Of a stretch of DNA of 27,677 nt, positions 1-27,677 are shown in pieces. Each line of letters starts with the position of its first letter. Position 1 is the first letter of the stretch. Source of the DNA: Eledone cirrhosa (lineage: Eukaryota); assembly GCA_964016885.1 (NCBI GenBank), contig CAXHJY010000747.1, positions 1-27,677 of the forward strand. Direction: 5' to 3'. The notes under the pieces were generated by a model. The model did no database searches. It was not told the origin of the DNA and saw only the letters and a program-made list of their open reading frames with translations. The translations under genes and the position numbers were made by a program.

Positions 1-6494
<6,494 letters not shown>

Positions 6495-9400
6495 ATACAT
6501 TATGAAGAGAGAAGAAACATTTAGATATAATTAGTAATAAAATGTATCATACCTAAACTGCTCCTAAACTCCTCGACTACGTAGTTTCGTGGCATAAACA
6601 AAAACAATATATCAAAGATATAGAGTCCTTGCGAGGTCTGCCAACTTATCAAGAGGATACCTCATTTTACTAGTCTCAAGAACGCGTCTACACGACGTGA
6701 GAAAGAATCCCAAAAGGCGGAGGGGGAGATAGTCACGCGATATAACGGTCGAGAAACAGAGCTAAGCCTCTTATAACCACGAAGAAAATACCACGGAGGC
6801 GGAGGGGGTATTCATATCGAGGCCGTAGAAGAGGTAGTGAAGAAGGCGAGAAGTATGAGTAATGGAAGCTTTCCAGTTGTCCCCACACTTCAAAGATTGC
6901 TCGACCAGAGGGGGGTTATTAATATATTTAGAAACACACAGATACATGCGGACACACACATATATACATGAATGCATCCGCACCCAACTGTGAGTTAAGG
7001 GTGCCAACTTCACCGATGTTGCTCAATGAATGACTGGGACAGACCAATTCAGTTTGAACCAGACTGAACCAGTATCAGAGTTAAAAATACATTATGAAGA
7101 GAGAAGAAACATTTAGATATAATTAGTAATAAAATGTATCATACCTAAACTGCTCCTAAATTCCTCGACTACGTAGTTTCGTGGCATAAACAAAAACAAT
7201 ATATCAAAGATATAGAGTCCTTGCGAGGTCTGCCAACTTATCAAGAGGATACCTCATTTTACTAGTCTCAAGAACGCGTCTACACGACGTGAGAAAGAAT
7301 CCCAAAAGGCGGAGGGGGAGATAGTCACGCGATATAACGGTCGAGAAACAGAGCTAAGCCTCTTATAACCACGAAGAAAATACCACGGAGGCGGAGGGGG
7401 TATTCATATCGAGGCCGTAGAAGAGGTAGTGAAGAAGGCGAGAAGTATGAGTAATGGAAGCTTTCCAGTTGTCCCCACACTTCAAAGATTGCTCGACCAG
7501 AGGGAGTTATTAATATATTTAGAAACACACAGATACATGCGGACACACACATATATACATGAATGCATCCGCACCCAACTGTGAGTTAAGGGTGCCAACT
7601 TCACCGATGTTGCTCAATGAATGACTGGGACAGACCAATTCAGTTTGAACCAGACTGAACCAGTATCAGAGTTAAAAATACATTATGAAGAGAGAAGAAA
7701 CATTTAGATATAATTAGTAATAAAATGTATCATACCTAAACTGCTCCTAAATTCCTCGACTACGTAGTTTCGTGGCATAAACAAAAACAATATATCAAAG
7801 ATATAGAGTCCTTGCGAGGTCTGCCAACTTATCAAGAGGATACCTCATTTTACTAGTCTCAAGAACGCGTCTACACGACGTGAGAAAGAATCCCAAAAGG
7901 CGGAGGGGGAGATAGTCACGGGATATAACGGTCGAGAAACAGAGCTAAGCCTCTTATAACCACGAAGAAAATACCACGGAGGCGGAGGGGGTATTCATAT
8001 CGAGGCCGTAGAAGAGGTAGTGAAGAAGGCGAGAAGTATGAGTAATGGAAGCTTTCCAGTTGTCCCCACACTTCAAAGATTGCTCGACCAGAGGGAGTTA
8101 TTAATATATTTAGAAACACACAGATACATGCGGACACACACATATATACATGAATGCATCCGCACCCAACTGTGAGTTAAGGGTGCCAACTTCACCGATG
8201 TTGCTCAATGAATGACTGGGACAGACCAATTCAGTTTGAACCAGACTGAACCAGTATCAGAGTTAAAAATACATTATGAAGAGAGAAGAAACATTTAGAT
8301 ATAATTAGTAATAAAATGTATCATACCTAAACTGCTCCTAAATTCCTCGACTACGTAGTTTCGTGGCATAAACAAAAACAATATATCAAAGATATAGAGT
8401 CCTTGCGAGGTCTGCCAACTTATCAAGAGGATACCTCATTTTACTAGTCTCAAGAACGCGTCTACACGACGTGAGAAAGAATCCCAAAAGGCGGAGGGGG
8501 AGATAGTCACGCGATATAACGGTCGAGAAACAGAGCTAAGCCTCTTATAACCACGAAGAAAATACCACGGAGGCGGAGGGGGTATTCATATCGAGGCCGT
8601 AGAAGAGGTAGTGAAGAAGGCGAGAAGTATGAGTAATGGAAGCTTTCCAGTTGTCCCCACACTTCAAAGATTGCTCGACCAGAGGGAGTTATTAATATAT
8701 TTAGAAACACACAGATACATGCGGACACACACATATATACATGAATGCATCCGCACCCAACTGTGAGTTAAGGGTGCCAACTTCACCGATGTTGCTCAAT
8801 GAATGACTGGGACAGACCAATTCAGTTTGAACCAGACTGAACCAGTATCAGAGTTAAAAATACATTATGAAGAGAGAAGAAACATTTAGATATAATTAGT
8901 AATAAAATGTATCATACCTAAACTGCTCCTAAATTCCTCGACTACGTAGTTTCGTGGCATAAACAAAAACAATATATCAAAGATATAGAGTCCTTGCGAG
9001 GTCTGCCAACTTATCAAGAGGATACCTCATTTTACTAGTCTCAAGAACGCGTCTACACGACGTGAGAAAGAATCCCAAAAGGCGGAGGGGGAGATAGTCA
9101 CGCGATATAATGGTCGAGAAACAGAGCTAAGCCTCTTATAACCACGAAGAAAATACCACGGAGGCGGAGGGGGTATTCATATCGAGGCCGTAGAAGAGGT
9201 AGTGAAGAAGGCGAGAAGTATGAGTAATGGAAGCTTTCCAGTTGTCCCCACACTTCAAAGATTGCTCGACCAGAGGGAGTTATTAATATATTTAGAAACA
9301 CACAGATACATGCGGACACACACATATATACATGAATGCATCCGCACCCAACTGTGAGTTAAGGGTGCCAACTTCACCGATGTTGCTCAATGAATGACTG

Positions 9401-9730
9401 GGACAGACCAATTCAGTTTGAACCAGACTGAACCAGTATCAGAGTTAAAAATACATTATGAAGAGAGAAGAAACATTTAGATATAATTAGTAATAAAATG
9501 TATCATACCTAAACTGCTCCTAAATTCCTCGACTACGTAGTTTCGTGGCATAAACAAAAACAATATATCAAAGATATAGAGTCCTTGCGAGGTCTGCCAA
9601 CTTATCAAGAGGATACCTCATTTTACTAGTCTCAAGAACGCGTCTACACGACGTGAGAAAGAATCCCAAAAGGCGGAGGGGAGATAGTCACGCGATATAA
9701 CGGTCGAGAAACAGAGCTAAGCCTCTTATA
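6495..9730. repeat. Head-to-tail tandem array of a 591-bp unit, about 5.5 copies
   Basis: CATTATGAAGAGAG recurs at 6498, 7090, 7681, 8272, 8863 and 9454 (spacing 592, 591, 591, 591, 591). Few differences seen (6569 C/T, G-run near 6910, 7921, 9111, 1-nt deletion near 9680). The last copy stops at GCCTCTTATA and runs into (TA)n. Confidence 0.97.
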
Positions 9731-12583
<2,853 letters not shown>

Positions 12584-13130
12584 GAGTTCTTCATAAAAAA
12601 AACCCTATGTTTTAATGTATTAGTATTTATAAAACTTACACTATATTGTAAATATCAGTATTCCTGAATGAGACAAGTATCTATAATGTGTGAAAATTAA
12701 TTATCTTATGTTTAGTTTTAAAAAAAATTCATATGTTTATGTGACAGCTACAAACATCCATGCGAATCTAACTGATTCACTCTGCAAACTCTAAGTTCAC
12801 GGAAAACGTTCTCAACGTGGTATAAAAATTTGAGCATACAAATATGTGTATTATTATTCATGTCATTACTCTACCAGATTATCTATCAAGCAGAAGTAGA
12901 GAGCAGATTTCAATATACTAATAAAAATATATATCATAAACAAAACTAAAAATAAAAAATAAAAAATAAAAAGATAACAATAATAATAATAAGTAAAAAT
13001 ATAGAATAGAACACTAAAAAAATAAAAATATTACGAAAGAATATTACATAATAAAAATATTATATATTAAGCATACTACGTATTAAAAAATATTACGTAT
13101 TAAAAATTTACATATTAAAGATATTAAAAA

Positions 13131-13270
13131 TACAATAAAAATAAAAAATAAAAAATAAAAAATAAAAAATAAAAAATAAAAAATAAAAAATAAAAAATAA
13201 AAAATAAAAAATAAAAAATATTATAGAATACTACAATAATAAAAATAAAAATAAAAATAAAAATAAAAAT
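13131..13270. repeat. (AAAAAT)n / (AAAAAAT)n-type A-rich microsatellite
   Basis: Directly visible tandem repeats of TAAAAAA and TAAAAA. Confidence 0.9.
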
Positions 13271-13629
13271 ACACCACAAAGATCAACCCTTCAAAGTTAA
13301 TTGACAATATATTGCCAAGTTCTTTACAAGACAAAGCCAAAAATTATCCATCAAATCACATCTAGCAAAGATCATTTCAAAAAGATTATGATGTCCAATT
13401 AGGTCTATATATGTTCTTATATTTAATATAGAAGTTTATCTAGTGTAAGGTTTATTCAAAAATTTGGAGCATCAGCTTTTAGGGTAGCTTAATTTTTCAT
13501 GAGGAATGTTTAGATAAAAATAAAATAAAAATAAACAATAAAAAGAGAGTAAAAAGAAGGAATCAAAGATTTAGGAATCAAAAATTTATCGGCTAGTTTC
13601 CCATATAAATATAAATCAAACTAAATATA

Positions 13630-14400
13630 CTACATTTTAAATTTAAATTTATATTTAAACGTTGAGTTTAATCTATGTTTGCAACAACTGAATAAATTTG
13701 TCCGTAGGTTAAGGGAATTTTTAGATTTTAGTATAAAGAATATCTCCTCTGCGCAGAGGTCACATGTCTCAGAGGATGAATTAAAAGGAATCCCTCTTGA
13801 GACTATATTCCAAGCCGTCGAATATCTAACGTTATCTAGCTTAAGTTGCCAGAGTACGCCTGATAGTGCCGTTGAAGATTTTTTATTTGGATCTGTGAAA
13901 GAATTCTTGTTATTATAGCGAAGTTTAAATTCCGTCGATGTGGAACCGACGTAGTTAAAAGAATTAGAGTCAGTATTAACATTACAATTGTATACTATAT
14001 TTTTAACTAAGCAGTTGTTATTTAACGGACATTTAGATCTATCTCTACAGTTACATTTGTTAACTTGTATATTATTTATGCTATTATCAGTAGGTTTTAA
14101 GTTCCTATTATTTATTCTATTAATATTTGTGCTAAATTTTTGGTGGATGAGTAGGTTAATTTAATTGTATGCCTATTGAAAATTGAGTGATACCTATGTG
14201 TTCTAGGGAAGCGATTATCAAGAGCTTTGAAAAATAATTTAGCGATGTGGGTTTTAATGTTTAGTGAGAAAGGGGGGGCAAACCAAATTATGTTCCTAGT
14301 TCTATTTCTTTTTTGTCCTTTGGAATTATTGTAATGCTTTCTATTATAGTTGTTAATGTTGTTGCCGTAATTAAAAAAGTTGTTACTTTGTTTAGTTTGT
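13630..14400 (-). pseudogene. Frameshifted PLE linker + Cys motif + GIY-YIG endonuclease fragment
   Basis: Track ORF 14112-14438 (RNRTRNIIWFAPPFSLNIKTHIAKLFF...HSIFNRHTIKLTYSST) aligns with RNRNRRVTWYNAPFNLQIKDNIAKKFF...HQILNRSTVKFSYSTT of the intact ORF. After a frameshift near 14115-14125, manual translation continues KCNCRDRSKCPLNNNCLVKNIVYNC...YVGSTSTEFKLRYNNKNSF...TCDLCAEEIFFILKSKNSLNLRTNLFSCCKHR to TAG at 13632-13630. The upper boundary is approximate. Confidence 0.92.
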
Positions 14401-14759
14401 CTATCATTATCTATGTACACATTGATACATTTACTCAAAATGACCTCCCACTACCTAATTTTCTATATATATATATGTATCTATCTCTATTTCCTCCCTC
14501 TATATATATATATATATCTTTCTGTTTCTTTACATGAAGTTCTTCGCTTTATCTATCTTTCCATCTCTCTATTTTGTTCCATGCATTTCCTCTTTCTCTT
14601 CTTTTTCTTCCTTTTCTTCGTTTTCTGTCTTTCTTTCTGTTTTCTCTCTTTTTCTTTCTCTCTGTGTAAAATTTTTCACAGCCAGAGTAAACCTCTTCAA
14701 ATGAAGTCGGTGTTATAACGGTATGTCGAACCTATTTGTCTATAAAACTGTTTATATTG

Positions 14760-14825
14760 TATTTTGTCTGATGAAGGCATAGCATATTGTTAATATGATA
14801 TCCCCGAAATATATATAATGAAATA
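14760..14825 (+). ncRNA. Type I hammerhead ribozyme with palindromic stem III
   Basis: CTGATGA at 14768-14774; stem II GG..CATATT/AATATG..CC; GAAA at 14806-14809; stem III ATATATAT; AUA triplet with predicted cut after 14817; stem I TATTTTGT(14760-67)/ATGAAATA(14818-25) with two G-U pairs, extendable outward. Confidence 0.8.
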
Positions 14826-14867
14826 AATATGGTTTTATAAATATAGTTTTCCATTTATTTAATATTG

Positions 14868-19105
<4,238 letters not shown>

Positions 19106-19109
19106 GAGA

Positions 19110-19435
19110 ATGTGTTGGTATGTATATTTAATCTTGATAGTTTGTATAATTTTGTATAATTTTGTACATAGATCTGTTGAATATGCATGCCAATTCTAAC
19201 ACATATATATCCTAGAAACGATCGTTAAATAATGAACTTTTTTTGTTTAATATAAGGAACTGTTTCATTGTTTATTCATTATTTGTTTAATATTTTATCT
19301 TGACTCTGTATACCGTTTATCTTTCACCGAAAGTGATTTTTCATTACATCTCTTCTTTCCATGATATCCGGAATACATTGAGTTCTTCATACGGATTGGA
19401 CACTACCGTAAACTCTTGGTAGATTTATCTACATA
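19110..19435 (+). repeat. Upstream pLTR copy (326-bp direct repeat of 25833-26158), truncated inside the hammerhead
   Basis: ATGTGTTGGTATG...TTATCTACATA matches at offset 6723, with one mismatch seen (A19412/G26135). Lacks CTGAAGA and the 5' strand of stem I. Confidence 0.96.
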
Positions 19436-19585
19436 ATTTTGCTCCTATTTTCACGGAAATATTCGTATTTTTGTACTGTATGTGTGTATTAATTTTATAT
19501 TTATGTATATACATATATATGTATGATTTTATAAACCCATATACATTTAGTTGAGCTCTTTCAATTGTCCATCATCCATATCACA

Positions 19586-22027
19586 ATGGAAAAACAATAT
19601 TTGGGAACCTCTTTAAAAAACATACCAATACCTTCTAAGGATGACTTCTTACTCCTTATGATTCAAAAAACTAATAATTTTATCAGAAGGGTTAGATGGA
19701 GAGCCTACCACTTCGATAGAAAATCTAAACAAGCAGATCGGAAATATATGTATGATTTCAATACTTACAAGAATCCACCACACAACTTTTTACTTGAAGA
19801 CTTCGAGAAAGACCTTTTTAATTTAATTAAACACCTCAAATTTAAAAAGTATAAATCCGTCTTTCAAAAGGACCTTGATTCTACCCTATTGGACCTAAAA
19901 AAGTCTAAAAAAATCCATGTCCACTCGGACAAAACTGGTAACTTGTATCATATGGATATTGAACATTATAATGAGTTCATATATAAAGAACTCAGAAAAA
20001 ATTATAAAAAATCTAATAATGCGTCACTCACCAACATCAACAACAAAACACACAACATAGTAAAAAAACTAAACATTGAAGATAGAACTGAACCTTTGGC
20101 ATTGAAAAGACCACACTTCAACCTGAAGGATCATAAATCAAACTTTAACTCAAATCCTTCTATTAGACTTATATGTCCCTCCAAATCAGATATTGGAATA
20201 ATTAGCAAAAAAACTTTGGATAGAGTCATCCCACAAATAAGAAAACACGTTATTTTACCACTCTGGGAAAACACCTCCCAGGTAATTAACTGGTTTAAAA
20301 ATATTAGATGTAAATCTTCTGCTTCATTTCTACAATTTGATATAGATAATTACTATTCTTCTATATCACCTATACTCCTGAACAAAGCATTGATATTTGC
20401 TAAAAATAGATCTAACTTAACTTTGGATGACATTAATATTATTACACATGCTAGACTAACACTTATTGAATTTCAGAATGAATACTGGACCAGAAACACA
20501 TATAGTAATCTATTTGATATTACTATGGGTTCAAGCGATTCCGCCCAAATTACTGATCTTGTGGGCCTCTTTCTCCTTTTCAACATAAATGCCTCCTTTC
20601 CCCACCTCAAAGGTGGTTTATATCGTGATGACTGTCTTCTTCTTTCTAACAACCTTAGCCTTTCAGAAATTGAAAAAAACAAAAAACATATTAGAACTTT
20701 CCTTAAAGACTATTATAATCTTAATATTACTTTTGAAAAAACAAGTAAAGTAGTAAATTTCCTAGATATAACTTTAGATTTAGCTACGGGTATCTACCAA
20801 CCTTACCATAAACCAAACCAAAACTTACATTACATACACTCACAATCTAATCACCCTAAATCTATCCTTAAAAACCTTGCATATAATATATCACTTAGAA
20901 TTTCTAACCTTTCTTCTAACCAAGATGTATTTGATAAAAATGCGACCTTCTATAACGAAGCTCTAGATAGAAGTGGCCACAAAAATAGATTAGAATATAT
21001 ACCTTCTACTAAAAATACTGAAAGCATACAACCTAATATTACCAACAAACACCAAATGAAAAGTACACACCTAAATGCCACCCACACTATACCCCAAAAT
21101 ACCAAATCTTCTAATATAAAGTATAGTAACTCTCAAAAAACTACTCATCATACAACTCTAATAAATATTAATAATAAAACTCCTAATAAAAAGGATAAAA
21201 CACCTAAATCTACAAATATAACTAAAAATGGTTGTGGTGAGATCATTAACATTAATCCTCCTAGTAAAAATCACGATACAACCTATAAAAATAATAAAAA
21301 TAATAAACAACATAGAAACCGTAATAGACGGGTTACTTGGTATAATGCTCCATTTAATTTACAAATTAAGGATAATATTGCTAAAAAATTTTTTTATATC
21401 CTAGAGAAAAACTTCCCACCAAACCACAAATACCATCAAATCTTAAATAGGTCTACAGTTAAATTCTCATACTCTACAACAAATAACATAAAACAAAATA
21501 TAAGTGCCTATAATGCATATAAATGTAAGAAAACCATAAGTATACCACCAGTACATCAAATTAACCATAATATCTCCTCAAATACAGAATTAACGAAAGG
21601 TTGTAACTGTAGAAACAAAGCAAACTGCCCATTAAAAGGGAATTGTCTTGTTAACAACATAGTCTATAAATGTAATGTTAAAACTAAAGATTCTATTTGC
21701 TCATATATAGGAGCTACCTCTAACAATTTTAAGACAAGGTTTAATACCCACAAGCATAGTTTTAAAAATGCCGCACTGGCTAATACAACATCTCTAGCAG
21801 AAAAAATCAATAGTTATAAAAATAAGAATATAGAATATGATTTGACCTGGAGTGTGCTCAAAAGAGCCACCCCTTATCAAAATAATAGAAATGAATGTAG
21901 ATTATGTTCCCAAGAACTATTTGAAATAATGAAATCTAAGGATATCCTATTAAATAAACGACAGGAATTAATTATATCGTGTAATCATAAACTAAAAAAA
22001 ACATTTAAATATTATAAACCTAATTAA
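19586..22027 (+). CDS. Penelope-like reverse transcriptase + GIY-YIG endonuclease polyprotein (813 aa from first ATG)
   Basis: N-terminal SLKNIPIPS, RRVRWRA and SDKTGN; RT motifs LKDHK, IRLI, LQFDIDNYYSSI, TMGSSDS, YRDD, VNFLDI; thumb YIHSQSNHP; N/K/T-rich linker; CNCRNKANCPLKGNC; GIY-YIG as NIVY..SYIG with RFNTHK, CRLC..E and LN..E...C.H. The track start at 19565 is TTG; the first ATG is at 19586. Confidence 0.96.
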   Translation: MEKQYLGTSLKNIPIPSKDDFLLLMIQKTNNFIRRVRWRAYHFDRKSKQADRKYMYDFNTYKNPPHNFLLEDFEKDLFNLIKHLKFKKYKSVFQKDLDSTLLDLKKSKKIHVHSDKTGNLYHMDIEHYNEFIYKELRKNYKKSNNASLTNINNKTHNIVKKLNIEDRTEPLALKRPHFNLKDHKSNFNSNPSIRLICPSKSDIGIISKKTLDRVIPQIRKHVILPLWENTSQVINWFKNIRCKSSASFLQFDIDNYYSSISPILLNKALIFAKNRSNLTLDDINIITHARLTLIEFQNEYWTRNTYSNLFDITMGSSDSAQITDLVGLFLLFNINASFPHLKGGLYRDDCLLLSNNLSLSEIEKNKKHIRTFLKDYYNLNITFEKTSKVVNFLDITLDLATGIYQPYHKPNQNLHYIHSQSNHPKSILKNLAYNISLRISNLSSNQDVFDKNATFYNEALDRSGHKNRLEYIPSTKNTESIQPNITNKHQMKSTHLNATHTIPQNTKSSNIKYSNSQKTTHHTTLININNKTPNKKDKTPKSTNITKNGCGEIININPPSKNHDTTYKNNKNNKQHRNRNRRVTWYNAPFNLQIKDNIAKKFFYILEKNFPPNHKYHQILNRSTVKFSYSTTNNIKQNISAYNAYKCKKTISIPPVHQINHNISSNTELTKGCNCRNKANCPLKGNCLVNNIVYKCNVKTKDSICSYIGATSNNFKTRFNTHKHSFKNAALANTTSLAEKINSYKNKNIEYDLTWSVLKRATPYQNNRNECRLCSQELFEIMKSKDILLNKRQELIISCNHKLKKTFKYYKPN

Positions 22028-22930
22028 TAACATTATTTTAGAAATTAATTTAATTTAAATGTTAGTTAACCTATAAATTTAATTTAATTAAAATTCTATT
22101 ACAGATGAGAATATAAAATATTATGTAATCATAAATTGTGAAAAACCTTTAAATATTACTAATATATACTTAGTAATTTAATTTATAGATTAATTTTAAT
22201 TTATTTAAACCTTTTATTATAATTCTTTTACAGATAAAATATAACAAAATATCGTGTATCCAATGACAGAGAAATAATTTTTAGTATTATATACCTAATT
22301 AATATACATTTTAGAAATATATTTATAATTTGGTTTTAATTTTAGTCAACCTAAAAATTTAATTTAATTGGCTTAAAATTAGTATCCTTATACAGACGAA
22401 TTGCAGAATGTCATGTAATCATAGAATGGGATGTGTTTTGGATATATACCTAGTTAATATATTCTTTGCAATTTTTGAAAAAATATGTATATGTATATGT
22501 GTATGTGTATGTGTATGTGTGTGTATATGTGTATATATGTATATATATATGTATATATATGTATATATATATGTGTATGTATATGTATATGTATATGTAT
22601 TAATTTTGATTTCTATTTGCATATAATTATATTCTGCTATTGATAAAATACAATATCTGTTTTATTTATTATATACCTAATTAACATATACTATAGAAAT
22701 AAATATATAATTTTTAATTTAGTTAACCTATAATTTATATTCTACTACCGATGTAATACTTTATTTGTTTTTTCCCTATTACTAAATTCATTTCCTAATA
22801 TTGATACCATAACGTTATTAACTTTAATTTAGTTATACTATAATTAATACTCTACTACTATTTAACTTCAAAATTCTGCTTCAAATATTATAAACCTAAT
22901 TAATTTACACCTTAGAAATCAATATGTTAA
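21975..22930 (+). repeat. Degenerate repeats of the ORF end / proximal 3' UTR
   Basis: ATTATA(A/T)ACCTAATTAA at 22011, 22286, 22668 and 22887 (degenerate at about 22442); TGTAATCATA at 21980, 22124 and 22414; TTAGT(T/C)AACCTA recurs. Confidence 0.75.
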
Positions 22931-23266
22931 CTATCTTTAGTTTAGTTAACATATAATTAATGGTATACTTATTTATTTTGAAATGCATAAATTTTGCCTT
23001 ATTTCTTGTTTATTGTATTTCCTAACACTGAAACTATGTAAAAACATACATTGGATCCAGATACGGATAATATTCTATGTTTCTTGAAACATATATTTAC
23101 TATAATCCCCTTCTCCAACCCCCCCCCCCTTTCCCCCATACTATTATCATCTGTGTTTGTAAGCGTGTATGTATGAATATATATGTAGGTAGGTGTATAT
23201 ATGTTTGGGTATTTATATCTGAATATAAAAATACATATATGCGCATGCAAATAAGAATGTAAGATT

Positions 23267-23357
23267 GTGTGTGTATATATAAGTGTGTATGTATGTGTAT
23301 ATGTGTATATATGCATGTGTATATATATGTGTATGTGTATGTGTGTATGCGTATATA

Positions 23358-23396
<39 letters not shown>

Positions 23397-23647
23397 ATGT
23401 ATGTATGTATATGTGTGTGTGTATATATATGTATGTCTCTCTATTTATATGTCTATCTTCGTATCTATGTGGATATATGTGTGTGTGTGTGCATGTATAC
23501 ACATATATGTGTTTATGTGTATATGTGTGTATGTGTATATATGTGTGGTTGCACACACATATATATGAGAGTGTGTATATGTGTGTGTGTATATGTATGT
23601 GTATATATATATATATATATATATGTGTGTATATGTGTCTATATTCG

Positions 23648-23698
<51 letters not shown>

Positions 23699-24280
23699 TA
23701 TTTATTAATTATTATAATATAACTTATGTGTATGTTGTGTATATGTGAGGGTGTGTATATGTATATATATGTGTATATATATGTGTTAAAAAAAATATAT
23801 ATGTGCATGTCTGTTTTTTATGTGTGTGTATATATATATATGTGTATATATATGTATATGTGGGTGTTTGTATGTGTATTTATGGTTGTATGTGTGTGTG
23901 GGTATATATATATATAAGTGTATGTGTATATATATATATATATATATATGTGTATATATATCTCTATTAATGCGTGTATATATGTATATGTATATGCCTT
24001 TTTCTTTGTATGTCTGAGTTGGGTGAGGGTGTAGTGGTGTTTCTATGTATATACGCATATATGAATGCGTATGTATTTGTATATATGAGTATATGTAAGT
24101 GCGTATGTATGTATGAATATATATCTAATTCTATGTATGAGTATATATGTGTGTATGTATGTTGTGTCTGTATGTATGTATATGTCTATGTGTGTATATA
24201 TATATGTATGTATGTGTGTGTATGTATCTATGTATGTGTATGTATGTACATATATGTCTATGTATGTGTGTATGTATATG

Positions 24281-24371
<91 letters not shown>

Positions 24372-24567
24372 TTATTTTTTATATATATGTGTGTGTGTAT
24401 GTGTGTGTGTGTGTGTATATATATCTTTATATATGTGTATGTGTATGTTCGTGTAGGTGTATGTGTGTGTATGACTATATATGTATGTGTGTATGTGTGT
24501 ATGTGTATATAAATCTATGTGTGTGTACATGTATGTATGTGTATGTATGTGTATGTGTGTATATGTG

Positions 24568-24628
<61 letters not shown>

Positions 24629-24906
24629 GTTTCTCTATTTGTATATGTATATGTGTATAGGTATATACCTTTTTCTTTGTATGTCTGAGTTGTGTGAGAG
24701 TGTAGTGGTGTTTGTATGTATATACCGATATATAGATGCGTAAGTATTTGTCTGTATGTATGTATGTATGTCTCTATGTATTTGTGTGTATATATAGGTA
24801 TATATGTGTATATCTGTATGTATATAAGTATGTAAGTGTATGTATATGTGCGTGTATGTGTGTATATATATGTGTGTCTATATAGTATGTGTGATTATAT
24901 GTGTAT

Positions 24907-24954
<48 letters not shown>

Positions 24955-25096
24955 ATTTATATGTATGTGTGTATATGTATGTATGCGTGTATATGTATAT
25001 GTTTATATATGTGTGTGTATGTATGTTCTAAGTGTGGATGTGTGTATATGTATGTATGTGTTTGTATATGTGTATATATATATGTGTATATATGTG

Positions 25097-25170
<74 letters not shown>
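23267..25170. repeat. Compound (TA)/(TG)/(TATG) microsatellite inside the PLE 3' region
   Basis: Directly visible; mirrored as (TA)/(CA) at about 16595-18510. Confidence 0.93.
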
Positions 25171-25172
<2 letters not shown>

Positions 25173-25832
25173 CTTGATATATTTCTTTTTTCTTTTTTCT
25201 TTTTCTTTTCTTTCCTTTTTAATGTTTATTTATTATTTATTATTTTTTATTTTCTTAGTTTATAGATACATCTATATTAAGCAGTCTGCCCAAACCGTTG
25301 AATACTGACCTCTCCCCCCCTCCCCCCACCTAATTTCTGTATTTGATCTAAATGTGTGTGCCAGTGTTTATGTGAGTGAATTAATATCCATGTGCTTAGG
25401 ATTTTATATCCACATATATATATGTGAGTGGGGGTGTGTGTGTGTGTTTGTATGTTCGTAGTTATGTGTATGTTTATGCATATACGCGCGTGTGTGTGTG
25501 TGATTGTACGGATATGTGTGAGTATGAGAATATGTATATACACTTATTTCATATTTATGTGTCTATACGCATCTTATCTGTGCATTATAAACTTACAGAG
25601 ACATTAACCTTGAAATTTTGTATTTGCATCCATCCTTTTGGTATGCGTATACAAGTTGTGCATACATTTTTGTAAAATATGTGTAAGGGTAGTTACATGT
25701 ATATACACACACCGAACTGCATTAAACCTTTTGTATTTTCATTGGTCAATTTTGTTCCCAAACGGACCTGAAATTTTGAATTGTTGTTATTATCAATAAA
25801 TATATTTCATTATTTCTGAAGACGGCGTATAT

Positions 25833-26775
<943 letters not shown>

Positions 26776-26965
26776 TATTAGGAACCAGTAAGACCCCGAC
26801 AGCTGAGCTCAAGCCGCTTCGACTGCTAATTCAGAATTAGCCGTCGAAACAGTTTGAGCTCAGCTGTCGGGGTCTTACTGGTTCCTAATACCCACTCTAC
26901 TACCTCAAGTATTGAGTACTTTGGTGCGTTATGGTCCACCTGGTTCCTTACCACATTTCCTTCGT
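26776..26965. other. Small fold-back element: 115-nt near-perfect palindrome plus ~75-nt tail, in (TA)n
   Basis: 26776-26812 is the exact reverse complement of 26854-26890 (37 bp); inner pairs TTCGAC/GTCGAA and GCTAATT/AATTAGC. Confidence 0.9.

Positions 26966-27677
<712 letters not shown>

Follow-up and report, generated by a model that had tools for sequence, protein, structure and literature searches.

The 27,677-nt stretch of the Eledone cirrhosa genome that we analysed (contig CAXHJY010000747.1, hereafter the window) raises the question of how a tandem array of a structured unit of about 591 bp came to lie within a long (TA)n microsatellite. A preliminary description of this DNA had proposed a dispersed, retrozyme-like multimer mobilised by Penelope-like machinery, and our data support that proposal: arrays of the unit occur in (TA)n at thousands of sites and show the tail and inversion layout of Penelope elements. 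Judged by its sequence, the array in the window is a young non-LTR retrozyme insertion in which every sequence-level feature of the class is present. The 591-nt family to which it belongs is very probably a retrozyme moved by Penelope-type target-primed reverse transcription.

Table 1. Coordinates of the array, its ribozymes and the candidate helper element in the window
Feature	Position	Strand	Remark
(TA)n target microsatellite, left flank	1..6494	.	
One-armed retrozyme insertion, ~5.47 head-to-tail 591-bp units	6495..9730	-	RNA sense = minus strand
Fixed "short" 3' end, site S (unit position 2)	6495..6500	-	joins (TA)n; 2,587 exact junctions genome-wide
Hammerhead copy 1	6570..6657	-	predicted cleavage after 6575
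71-nt hairpin right after cleavage site, before site S	7096..7166	-	predicted, unit 2; outer pairs compete with stem I
Hammerhead copy 2	7162..7249	-	predicted cleavage after 7167
Second fixed priming site L (unit position 426-428)	7511..7516	-	shown for unit 2; 1,025 exact junctions genome-wide
Hammerhead copy 3	7753..7840	-	predicted cleavage after 7758
Hammerhead copy 4	8344..8431	-	predicted cleavage after 8349
Hammerhead copy 5	8935..9022	-	predicted cleavage after 8940
Hammerhead copy 6	9526..9613	-	predicted cleavage after 9531
Variable 5'-truncated end (unit position 282)	9722..9730	-	TA microhomology; 136 truncation points fall throughout the unit
(TA)n target microsatellite, right flank	9731..12583	.	
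Candidate helper family: two-armed Hydra-clade Penelope-like element	15750..26158	+	
Helper open frame, RT + C-terminal GIY-YIG	19535..22027	+	RWR, DKT, CxCX5C
Helper hammerhead	25808..25957	+	long stem II, palindromic stem III, hairpin right after cut

A short non-coding array in a microsatellite

The unit starts are spaced by 592, 591, 591, 591 and 591 bp, and each full unit shows 0-2 substitutions relative to unit 2, which bears out the earlier impression of near-identical head-to-tail copies in a non-integer number. The units follow one another without terminal repeats, and the element is short, non-coding, low in GC and without an LTR. Its GC content (41.6%) is nonetheless far above that of the (TA)n flanks (~0%), as had been noted, and 23 CpG dinucleotides were observed in the unit against 25.5 expected. 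No open frame in the array exceeds 86 codons; the longest stop-free stretch of 86 aa rules out a coding role for the unit and agrees with its first reading as apparently non-coding. An Rfam scan, one of the checks that had been suggested, returned zero matches within the array. Two GC-box-like motifs and an E-box-like motif at 7308..7399 are kept in both subfamilies of the unit (described below) and are a candidate internal promoter. Outside any retrozyme array, L186:2816-2937 matches the GC-box region (unit positions 202-324) at 70%. Within the 6.5-kb left (TA)n flank, the interruptions are T-to-A changes on one strand only (AT skew ~0.09) and may be a sequencing artefact.

A minus-strand hammerhead in each unit

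The preliminary description had reported no CTGANGA core and had called for a different or unknown processing motif. The first part stands, as CTGANGA is absent from both strands, but the second does not, since the minus strand carries a type I hammerhead in each of the six copies, with all core positions present. It consists of stem I UCCUC/GAGGA (5 bp), the core UUGAUAA, GAAA and a GUC triplet, a 57-nt stem II that opens with G10.1-C11.1 and has a 6-bp bulged basal part, and a stem III of 3 bp with a palindromic loop, formed by the palindrome that the preliminary description had listed. The defining elements of the type I fold (N3-U4-G5-A6-N7-N8-A9, a 3-8 pair, G12-A13-A14, A15.1-U16.1, H17, G10.1-C11.1 and three stems) were all found. 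Because U3-A8 stands in place of C3-G8, a CTGANGA search fails on this ribozyme. A relaxed hammerhead descriptor gave 0 matches in 2,000 shuffled units, and no copies with a changed 3-8 pair were found in the family. The U3-A8 covariant is known from Schistosoma PLE hammerheads (PMC4209133), and this variant is active in vitro (PMC3088659), according to the accessible text of both sources. From its sequence, the minus-strand transcript of the unit likely self-cleaves at the U3-A8 hammerhead to give 591-nt monomers.

The many hairpins noted at the outset were recovered, including the inverted repeats listed, and folding proved to be strand-specific, with z = -5.4 for the minus strand and -1.4 for the plus strand of the window unit. 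An older subfamily shares 76% identity with the young subfamily, and its consensus folds with z = -8.8 on the ribozyme strand and -1.8 on the opposite strand. The joint fold of the two subfamilies reached -129 on the ribozyme strand versus -76 for the antisense and -72 for shuffled sequences. Their consensuses are identical at 44/44 hammerhead core and stem bases versus 417/559 elsewhere, with the core and stem boundaries set after the alignment had been seen, and the two halves of the ribozyme are the two longest identical runs between them (29 and 25 nt). Such strict conservation of the catalytic core implies selection for cleavage. In a selection of 28 copies, pairing in stems I and III reaches 99-100%, the outer hairpins vary chiefly through one-sided G-U/A-U swaps, and both-side covariation does not rise above shuffles (197/500).

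Ensemble predictions gave stem I a pairing probability of 0.5-0.76 for the hammerhead alone, 0.04 with 20 nt of upstream sequence and 0 in longer contexts, so in these models the active hammerhead fold is not predicted to dominate in its sequence context. In each unit, a conserved GAGG-UAU-CCUC hairpin (7250-7260, minus strand) shares bases with the 5' strand of stem I, and the prediction is that it would inactivate the ribozyme.

Thousands of dispersed insertions with two fixed ends

A 24-nt ribozyme motif has 7,300 exact copies in the 3.0-Gb genome. The first 100 of these fall into 50 loci across the first 54 Mb of C1, which extrapolates to ~3,600 dispersed retrozyme loci, seen genome-wide as monomers to multimers of the unit. 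The genome search with the unit, another of the proposed checks, thus yielded many dispersed, (TA)n-flanked short arrays, and with thousands of loci the family cannot be described as one locus or as a satellite block. No exact match to the ribozyme motif was found in metagenome contigs.

The outer ends of these arrays lie at two fixed phases of the unit, S and L, situated 80 nt and 245 nt, respectively, after the predicted cleavage site, and the stretch from S to L forms a 165-nt Penelope-type tail. Loose TA ends at 6922, 7087 and 7513 in public contigs match the fixed end sites. The window copy has a single arm, with an S end and a truncation at unit position 282; site L is internal in this array and forms the array end in other insertions. 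These observations correct two earlier statements. Both ends had been described as alike in blending into (TA)n, and the TA microhomology at the 9730 end holds, but the ends are not equivalent, the one at 6495 being fixed and the one at 9730 a variable truncation. Similarly, the start phase had been expected to vary from locus to locus, whereas it is the 5' truncation alone that varies, the 3' ends lying at the two fixed sites.

We classified 86 loci (39 best matches, 7 pattern matches and 40 taken in order along C1). Two arms with ends S+L were found in 48 and two arms with an unclassifiable end in 3, and no locus was S+S or L+L; of the remainder, 33 were one-armed with S or L, 1 was one-armed with another end and 1 was cut by the locus edge. 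Complete two-armed insertions are therefore S+L in 48/51. A set of 30 older loci, sampled in a way that over-represents L ends, comprised 17 S+L, 9 one-armed and 1 L+L, plus 3 in which an end could not be classified; the L+L case (L158) runs counter to the S+L rule. (TA)n adjoins 129/137 primed ends and 25/34 truncated ends, and the inner junctions of two-armed insertions overlap mostly by 0-7 nt. A tail at one end only, an inverted 5'-truncated arm and a microsatellite target are thus all present in the 591-nt family. The 5' truncation, the inverted arm and the tail at one end are the signature layout of Penelope elements as given in the accessible part of PMC8557442.

We also observed at least 10 further hammerhead families in the same (TA)n tracts, in the flanks of L019, L038, L050, L052, L090 and L114, and likewise of L117, L129, L131, L133, L135 and L158.

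Substitutions biased to the RNA strand

Lineage variants polarised on the RNA strand comprise 19 A>G versus 7 T>C (p = 3e-4). The A>G share is 6/16 among private variants present in all copies of an insertion versus 7/106 among one-copy variants (p = 0.002). The neighbour preference of ADAR was not significant (p = 0.2), and the fixed differences from the old to the young subfamily show no A>G excess (21 versus 22 T>C). The A>G excess shows that substitutions are biased by strand, which we take as a sign of an RNA phase. It may stem from A-to-I editing, but also from a bias of the enzyme or from selection in favour of G-U pairs.

The array could in principle be a DNA-level element (a satellite, a Helitron-like element or an extrachromosomal DNA circle) that entered (TA)n after rolling-circle amplification. 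Such an element would have tandem units in a non-integer number, and a DNA monomer circle would homogenise the units too. Against this origin stand the fixed 3' ends combined with variable 5' ends, the S+L rule held in common with an element that encodes a reverse transcriptase, the conservation of structure on one strand only and the strand-biased substitutions. These findings already largely refute a DNA-level element, which we regard as scarcely credible.

Monomer circle or multimer as template

Among copies of at least 90% identity, 80/133 arms exceed 1 unit and 31/133 exceed 2 units, the longest measuring 4,476 nt, whereas a linear cut monomer primed at S would yield just 80 nt of cDNA. 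Lineage variants across the units of one insertion gave 113 concordant versus 15 discordant observations. Further, 16 locus-private variants occur in all copies of their insertion, 10 of them spanning both arms, and private deletions are present in 4/4 and 2/2 units of insertions, while 151 one-copy variants are unhomogenised. The homogeneity of units within insertions points to a bottleneck of one monomer followed by re-amplification, and we favour a monomer circle as the usual template. The circular RNA itself is something that we infer from genomic signs of this kind; single loop-shaped contigs in X1 and X5 are compatible with a tandem array as much as with a circle and carry no weight in this argument.

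Linear cleaved monomers might instead have been linked through repeated template jumps of the reverse transcriptase, a process that would also yield head-to-tail units and would require an active ribozyme. All 227 of the 227 scored junctions at the cleavage site are nonetheless free of gained or lost bases. The cleavage site shows no excess of 5' truncations (4/136 in positions 76-85, ~2.3 expected), and switching between molecules would produce mosaic arrays. We therefore consider template jumping very unlikely.

A weightier alternative keeps the same Penelope-type insertion and takes as template a linear multimer that is transcribed through an existing array and left uncut, with a hammerhead that rarely cuts or serves another step. 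In PAc, the Poseidon element of Anolis, the main template is uncut RNA, and the hammerhead is dispensable for insertion in vitro, as its mutants still insert (accessible text of PMC11167929). The failure of the predictions to show the active fold within its surrounding sequence would fit such a template, as would the 15 discordant lineage sites and the mosaics at two loci. At L035, three private variants are common to single inner units of the two arms and one occurs in two units of one arm; at L032, a variant occurs in three units of one arm only. Neither pattern is expected from one monomer circle. Copying from array to array should, however, shrink arrays and transmit unit-specific variants, yet the lineage counts given above favour variants shared by all units, the one-copy variants stay unhomogenised, and the strict conservation of the catalytic core implies selection for cleavage. 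Given these data, an uncut multimer seems to us unlikely as the template, and a monomer circle remains the reading that we carry forward.

The L035 locus (G000:C12:14089700-14099600) is a 13-unit two-armed array in which the variant-sharing inner units are offset by two units; an assembly artefact, gene conversion or copying from a multimeric template may account for this. A further point against hammerhead cutting comes from another system, in which 8/9 Xenopus retrozyme dimers failed to cleave, according to the available part of 10.64898/2026.07.22.740005.

A candidate helper in the same window

The window also holds an intact, very young Penelope-like element that could supply the enzyme. 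Its protein of about 813-830 aa carries RWR at 37, DKT at 115, CNCRNKANC at 673 and YIG at 707, and we assign the element to the Hydra clade by its motifs, hammerhead and (TA)n target, set against the clade definition in the accessible text of PMC8557442. Pfam gave no name for this protein; 105 unnamed homologues of it were observed. All 150 of the 150 scored copies of the family are 98-100% identical, the genome contains 20,929 first-look candidates, and full-length tandems measure ~6.67 kb. Stem II of the helper hammerhead is 115 nt long with an imperfect base, and the element ends 72 and 209 nt after its own cleavage site. Short and long ends occur together in 9/9 two-armed insertions, these being the window copy and eight others chosen for a visible inverted arm, with the ambiguous L072 left out.

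A second Hydra family has a pLTR hammerhead with a U3-A8 core, a variable N7 and a 56-nt stem II, the basal part of which resembles basal stem II of the 591-nt unit, and its ends lie about 21 and 101 nt after cleavage. A tiny two-armed insertion of this abundant family was observed at 26777-26985 of the window, and the family also at L150:3320, L122:4994 and L184-L213. Separately, 12585-14868 holds a broken second Hydra-type remnant with GIY-YIG frames on the minus strand (13630-14450). A hammerhead-like CTGATGA...GAAA motif on the plus strand (~14765-14830) was read by eye and stands unscored in the descriptor scan.

Between the 591-nt unit and the two Hydra families we found no sequence homology beyond low complexity. 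We looked in two ways for a parent PLE that has the ribozyme end in common with the unit, and rejected all candidates: an exclusion pattern gave 7 matches, all ordinary retrozyme copies, and a short-stem-II pattern gave 3 matches, all deletion copies. As no alignable sequence is common to the unit and the Hydra families and no cognate parent was found, the helper is one that we infer, and on balance the Hydra clade probably fills this role for the 591-nt retrozyme.

A proposed scheme for retrozyme insertion

We hypothesize that the minus-strand transcript would self-cleave at the U3-A8 hammerhead into 591-nt monomers, which would then be closed into circles. An endonuclease would cut both (TA)n strands, with one DNA end priming at site S and the other at site L, and each enzyme would travel one to seven turns round the RNA template. 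The two cDNAs would meet head to head and be joined where they overlap over a short stretch; alternatively, just one arm would become fixed, as in the window array. A Penelope-like enzyme, with the Hydra clade as its probable source, would carry out the reverse transcription into (TA)n. As a whole, this scheme of a young retrozyme, hammerhead cutting, 591-nt circles and Penelope-like copying into (TA)n, probably by the Hydra clade, seems likely to us.

More tentatively, and with a confidence that falls somewhat short of even, each insertion may be a DNA record of one circular RNA, read from both ends of a (TA)n break by two paired Penelope enzymes with asymmetric starts at two structure-defined sites, and with A-to-I edits fixed in every unit. 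This conjecture goes together with a hidden clan of retrozymes and Hydra pLTRs, marked by a long stem II and U3-A8, that CUGANGA searches would have missed.

Comparison with known retrozymes and Penelope-like elements

Mobilisation of non-LTR retrozymes by PLEs from circular RNA has been proposed (PMC7229834; 10.64898/2026.07.22.740005). In a mostly open-access literature we found no report of a retrozyme tail, a two-armed layout, a cephalopod retrozyme or editing, and an earlier description is possible. Like the metazoan non-LTR retrozymes of the accessible parts of these two sources, the 591-nt family has non-coding tandem units of a few hundred nt with GC <45%, one type I hammerhead per unit with a palindromic stem III, and dispersed monomers to multimers that co-occur with PLEs. 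Its unit length of 591 nt exceeds the 150-450 nt of PMC7229834 and lies within the 51-972 bp of 10.64898/2026.07.22.740005. Unlike those retrozymes as described there, it has a U3-A8 core and a stem II of 57-62 nt, a combination missed by CUGANGA descriptors and Rfam. The two fixed ends, the tail and the two-armed insertions have no counterpart among the retrozymes in the available text of either source. Nor was a pLTR homologue of the unit found in the two Hydra families compared. Searches bound to CUGANGA and a short stem II can overlook families with thousands of copies.

With the Hydra-clade PLEs of the accessible part of PMC8557442, the family shares the (TA)n target, the 5' truncation, the inverted 5' copy and the tail at one end. 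As in the pLTRs of that clade, a hammerhead lies shortly before the insertion end (PMC8557442; PMC4209133), and the U3-A8 core is held in common with the Schistosoma PLEs of the latter source, as far as its available text goes. Unlike those elements, the 591-nt unit is without an open frame, and its tail measures 165 nt versus the 30-40 bp given in the accessible text of PMC8557442.

PAc cuts both strands of AT-rich DNA and starts at two internal RNA sites (accessible text of PMC11167929). The 591-nt family resembles it in that both DNA strands would be cut and extended and two internal start sites define the tail. In PAc, that text gives no difference in start site between the strands, whereas here one break nearly always shows one site of each kind. 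The PAc template is uncut linear RNA, whereas here the arms run several units.

The 591-nt RNA and the intact Hydra protein, present in one window, form a substrate pair for an in vitro test. The idea that PLEs move retrozymes through RNA circles was put forward between 2014 and 2020 and, in the accessible portions of that literature, rests on co-occurrence and pLTR similarity. To this the 591-nt family adds a direct footprint: its start sites are fixed at two positions, and a break uses each of them once, as in the active Hydra element.
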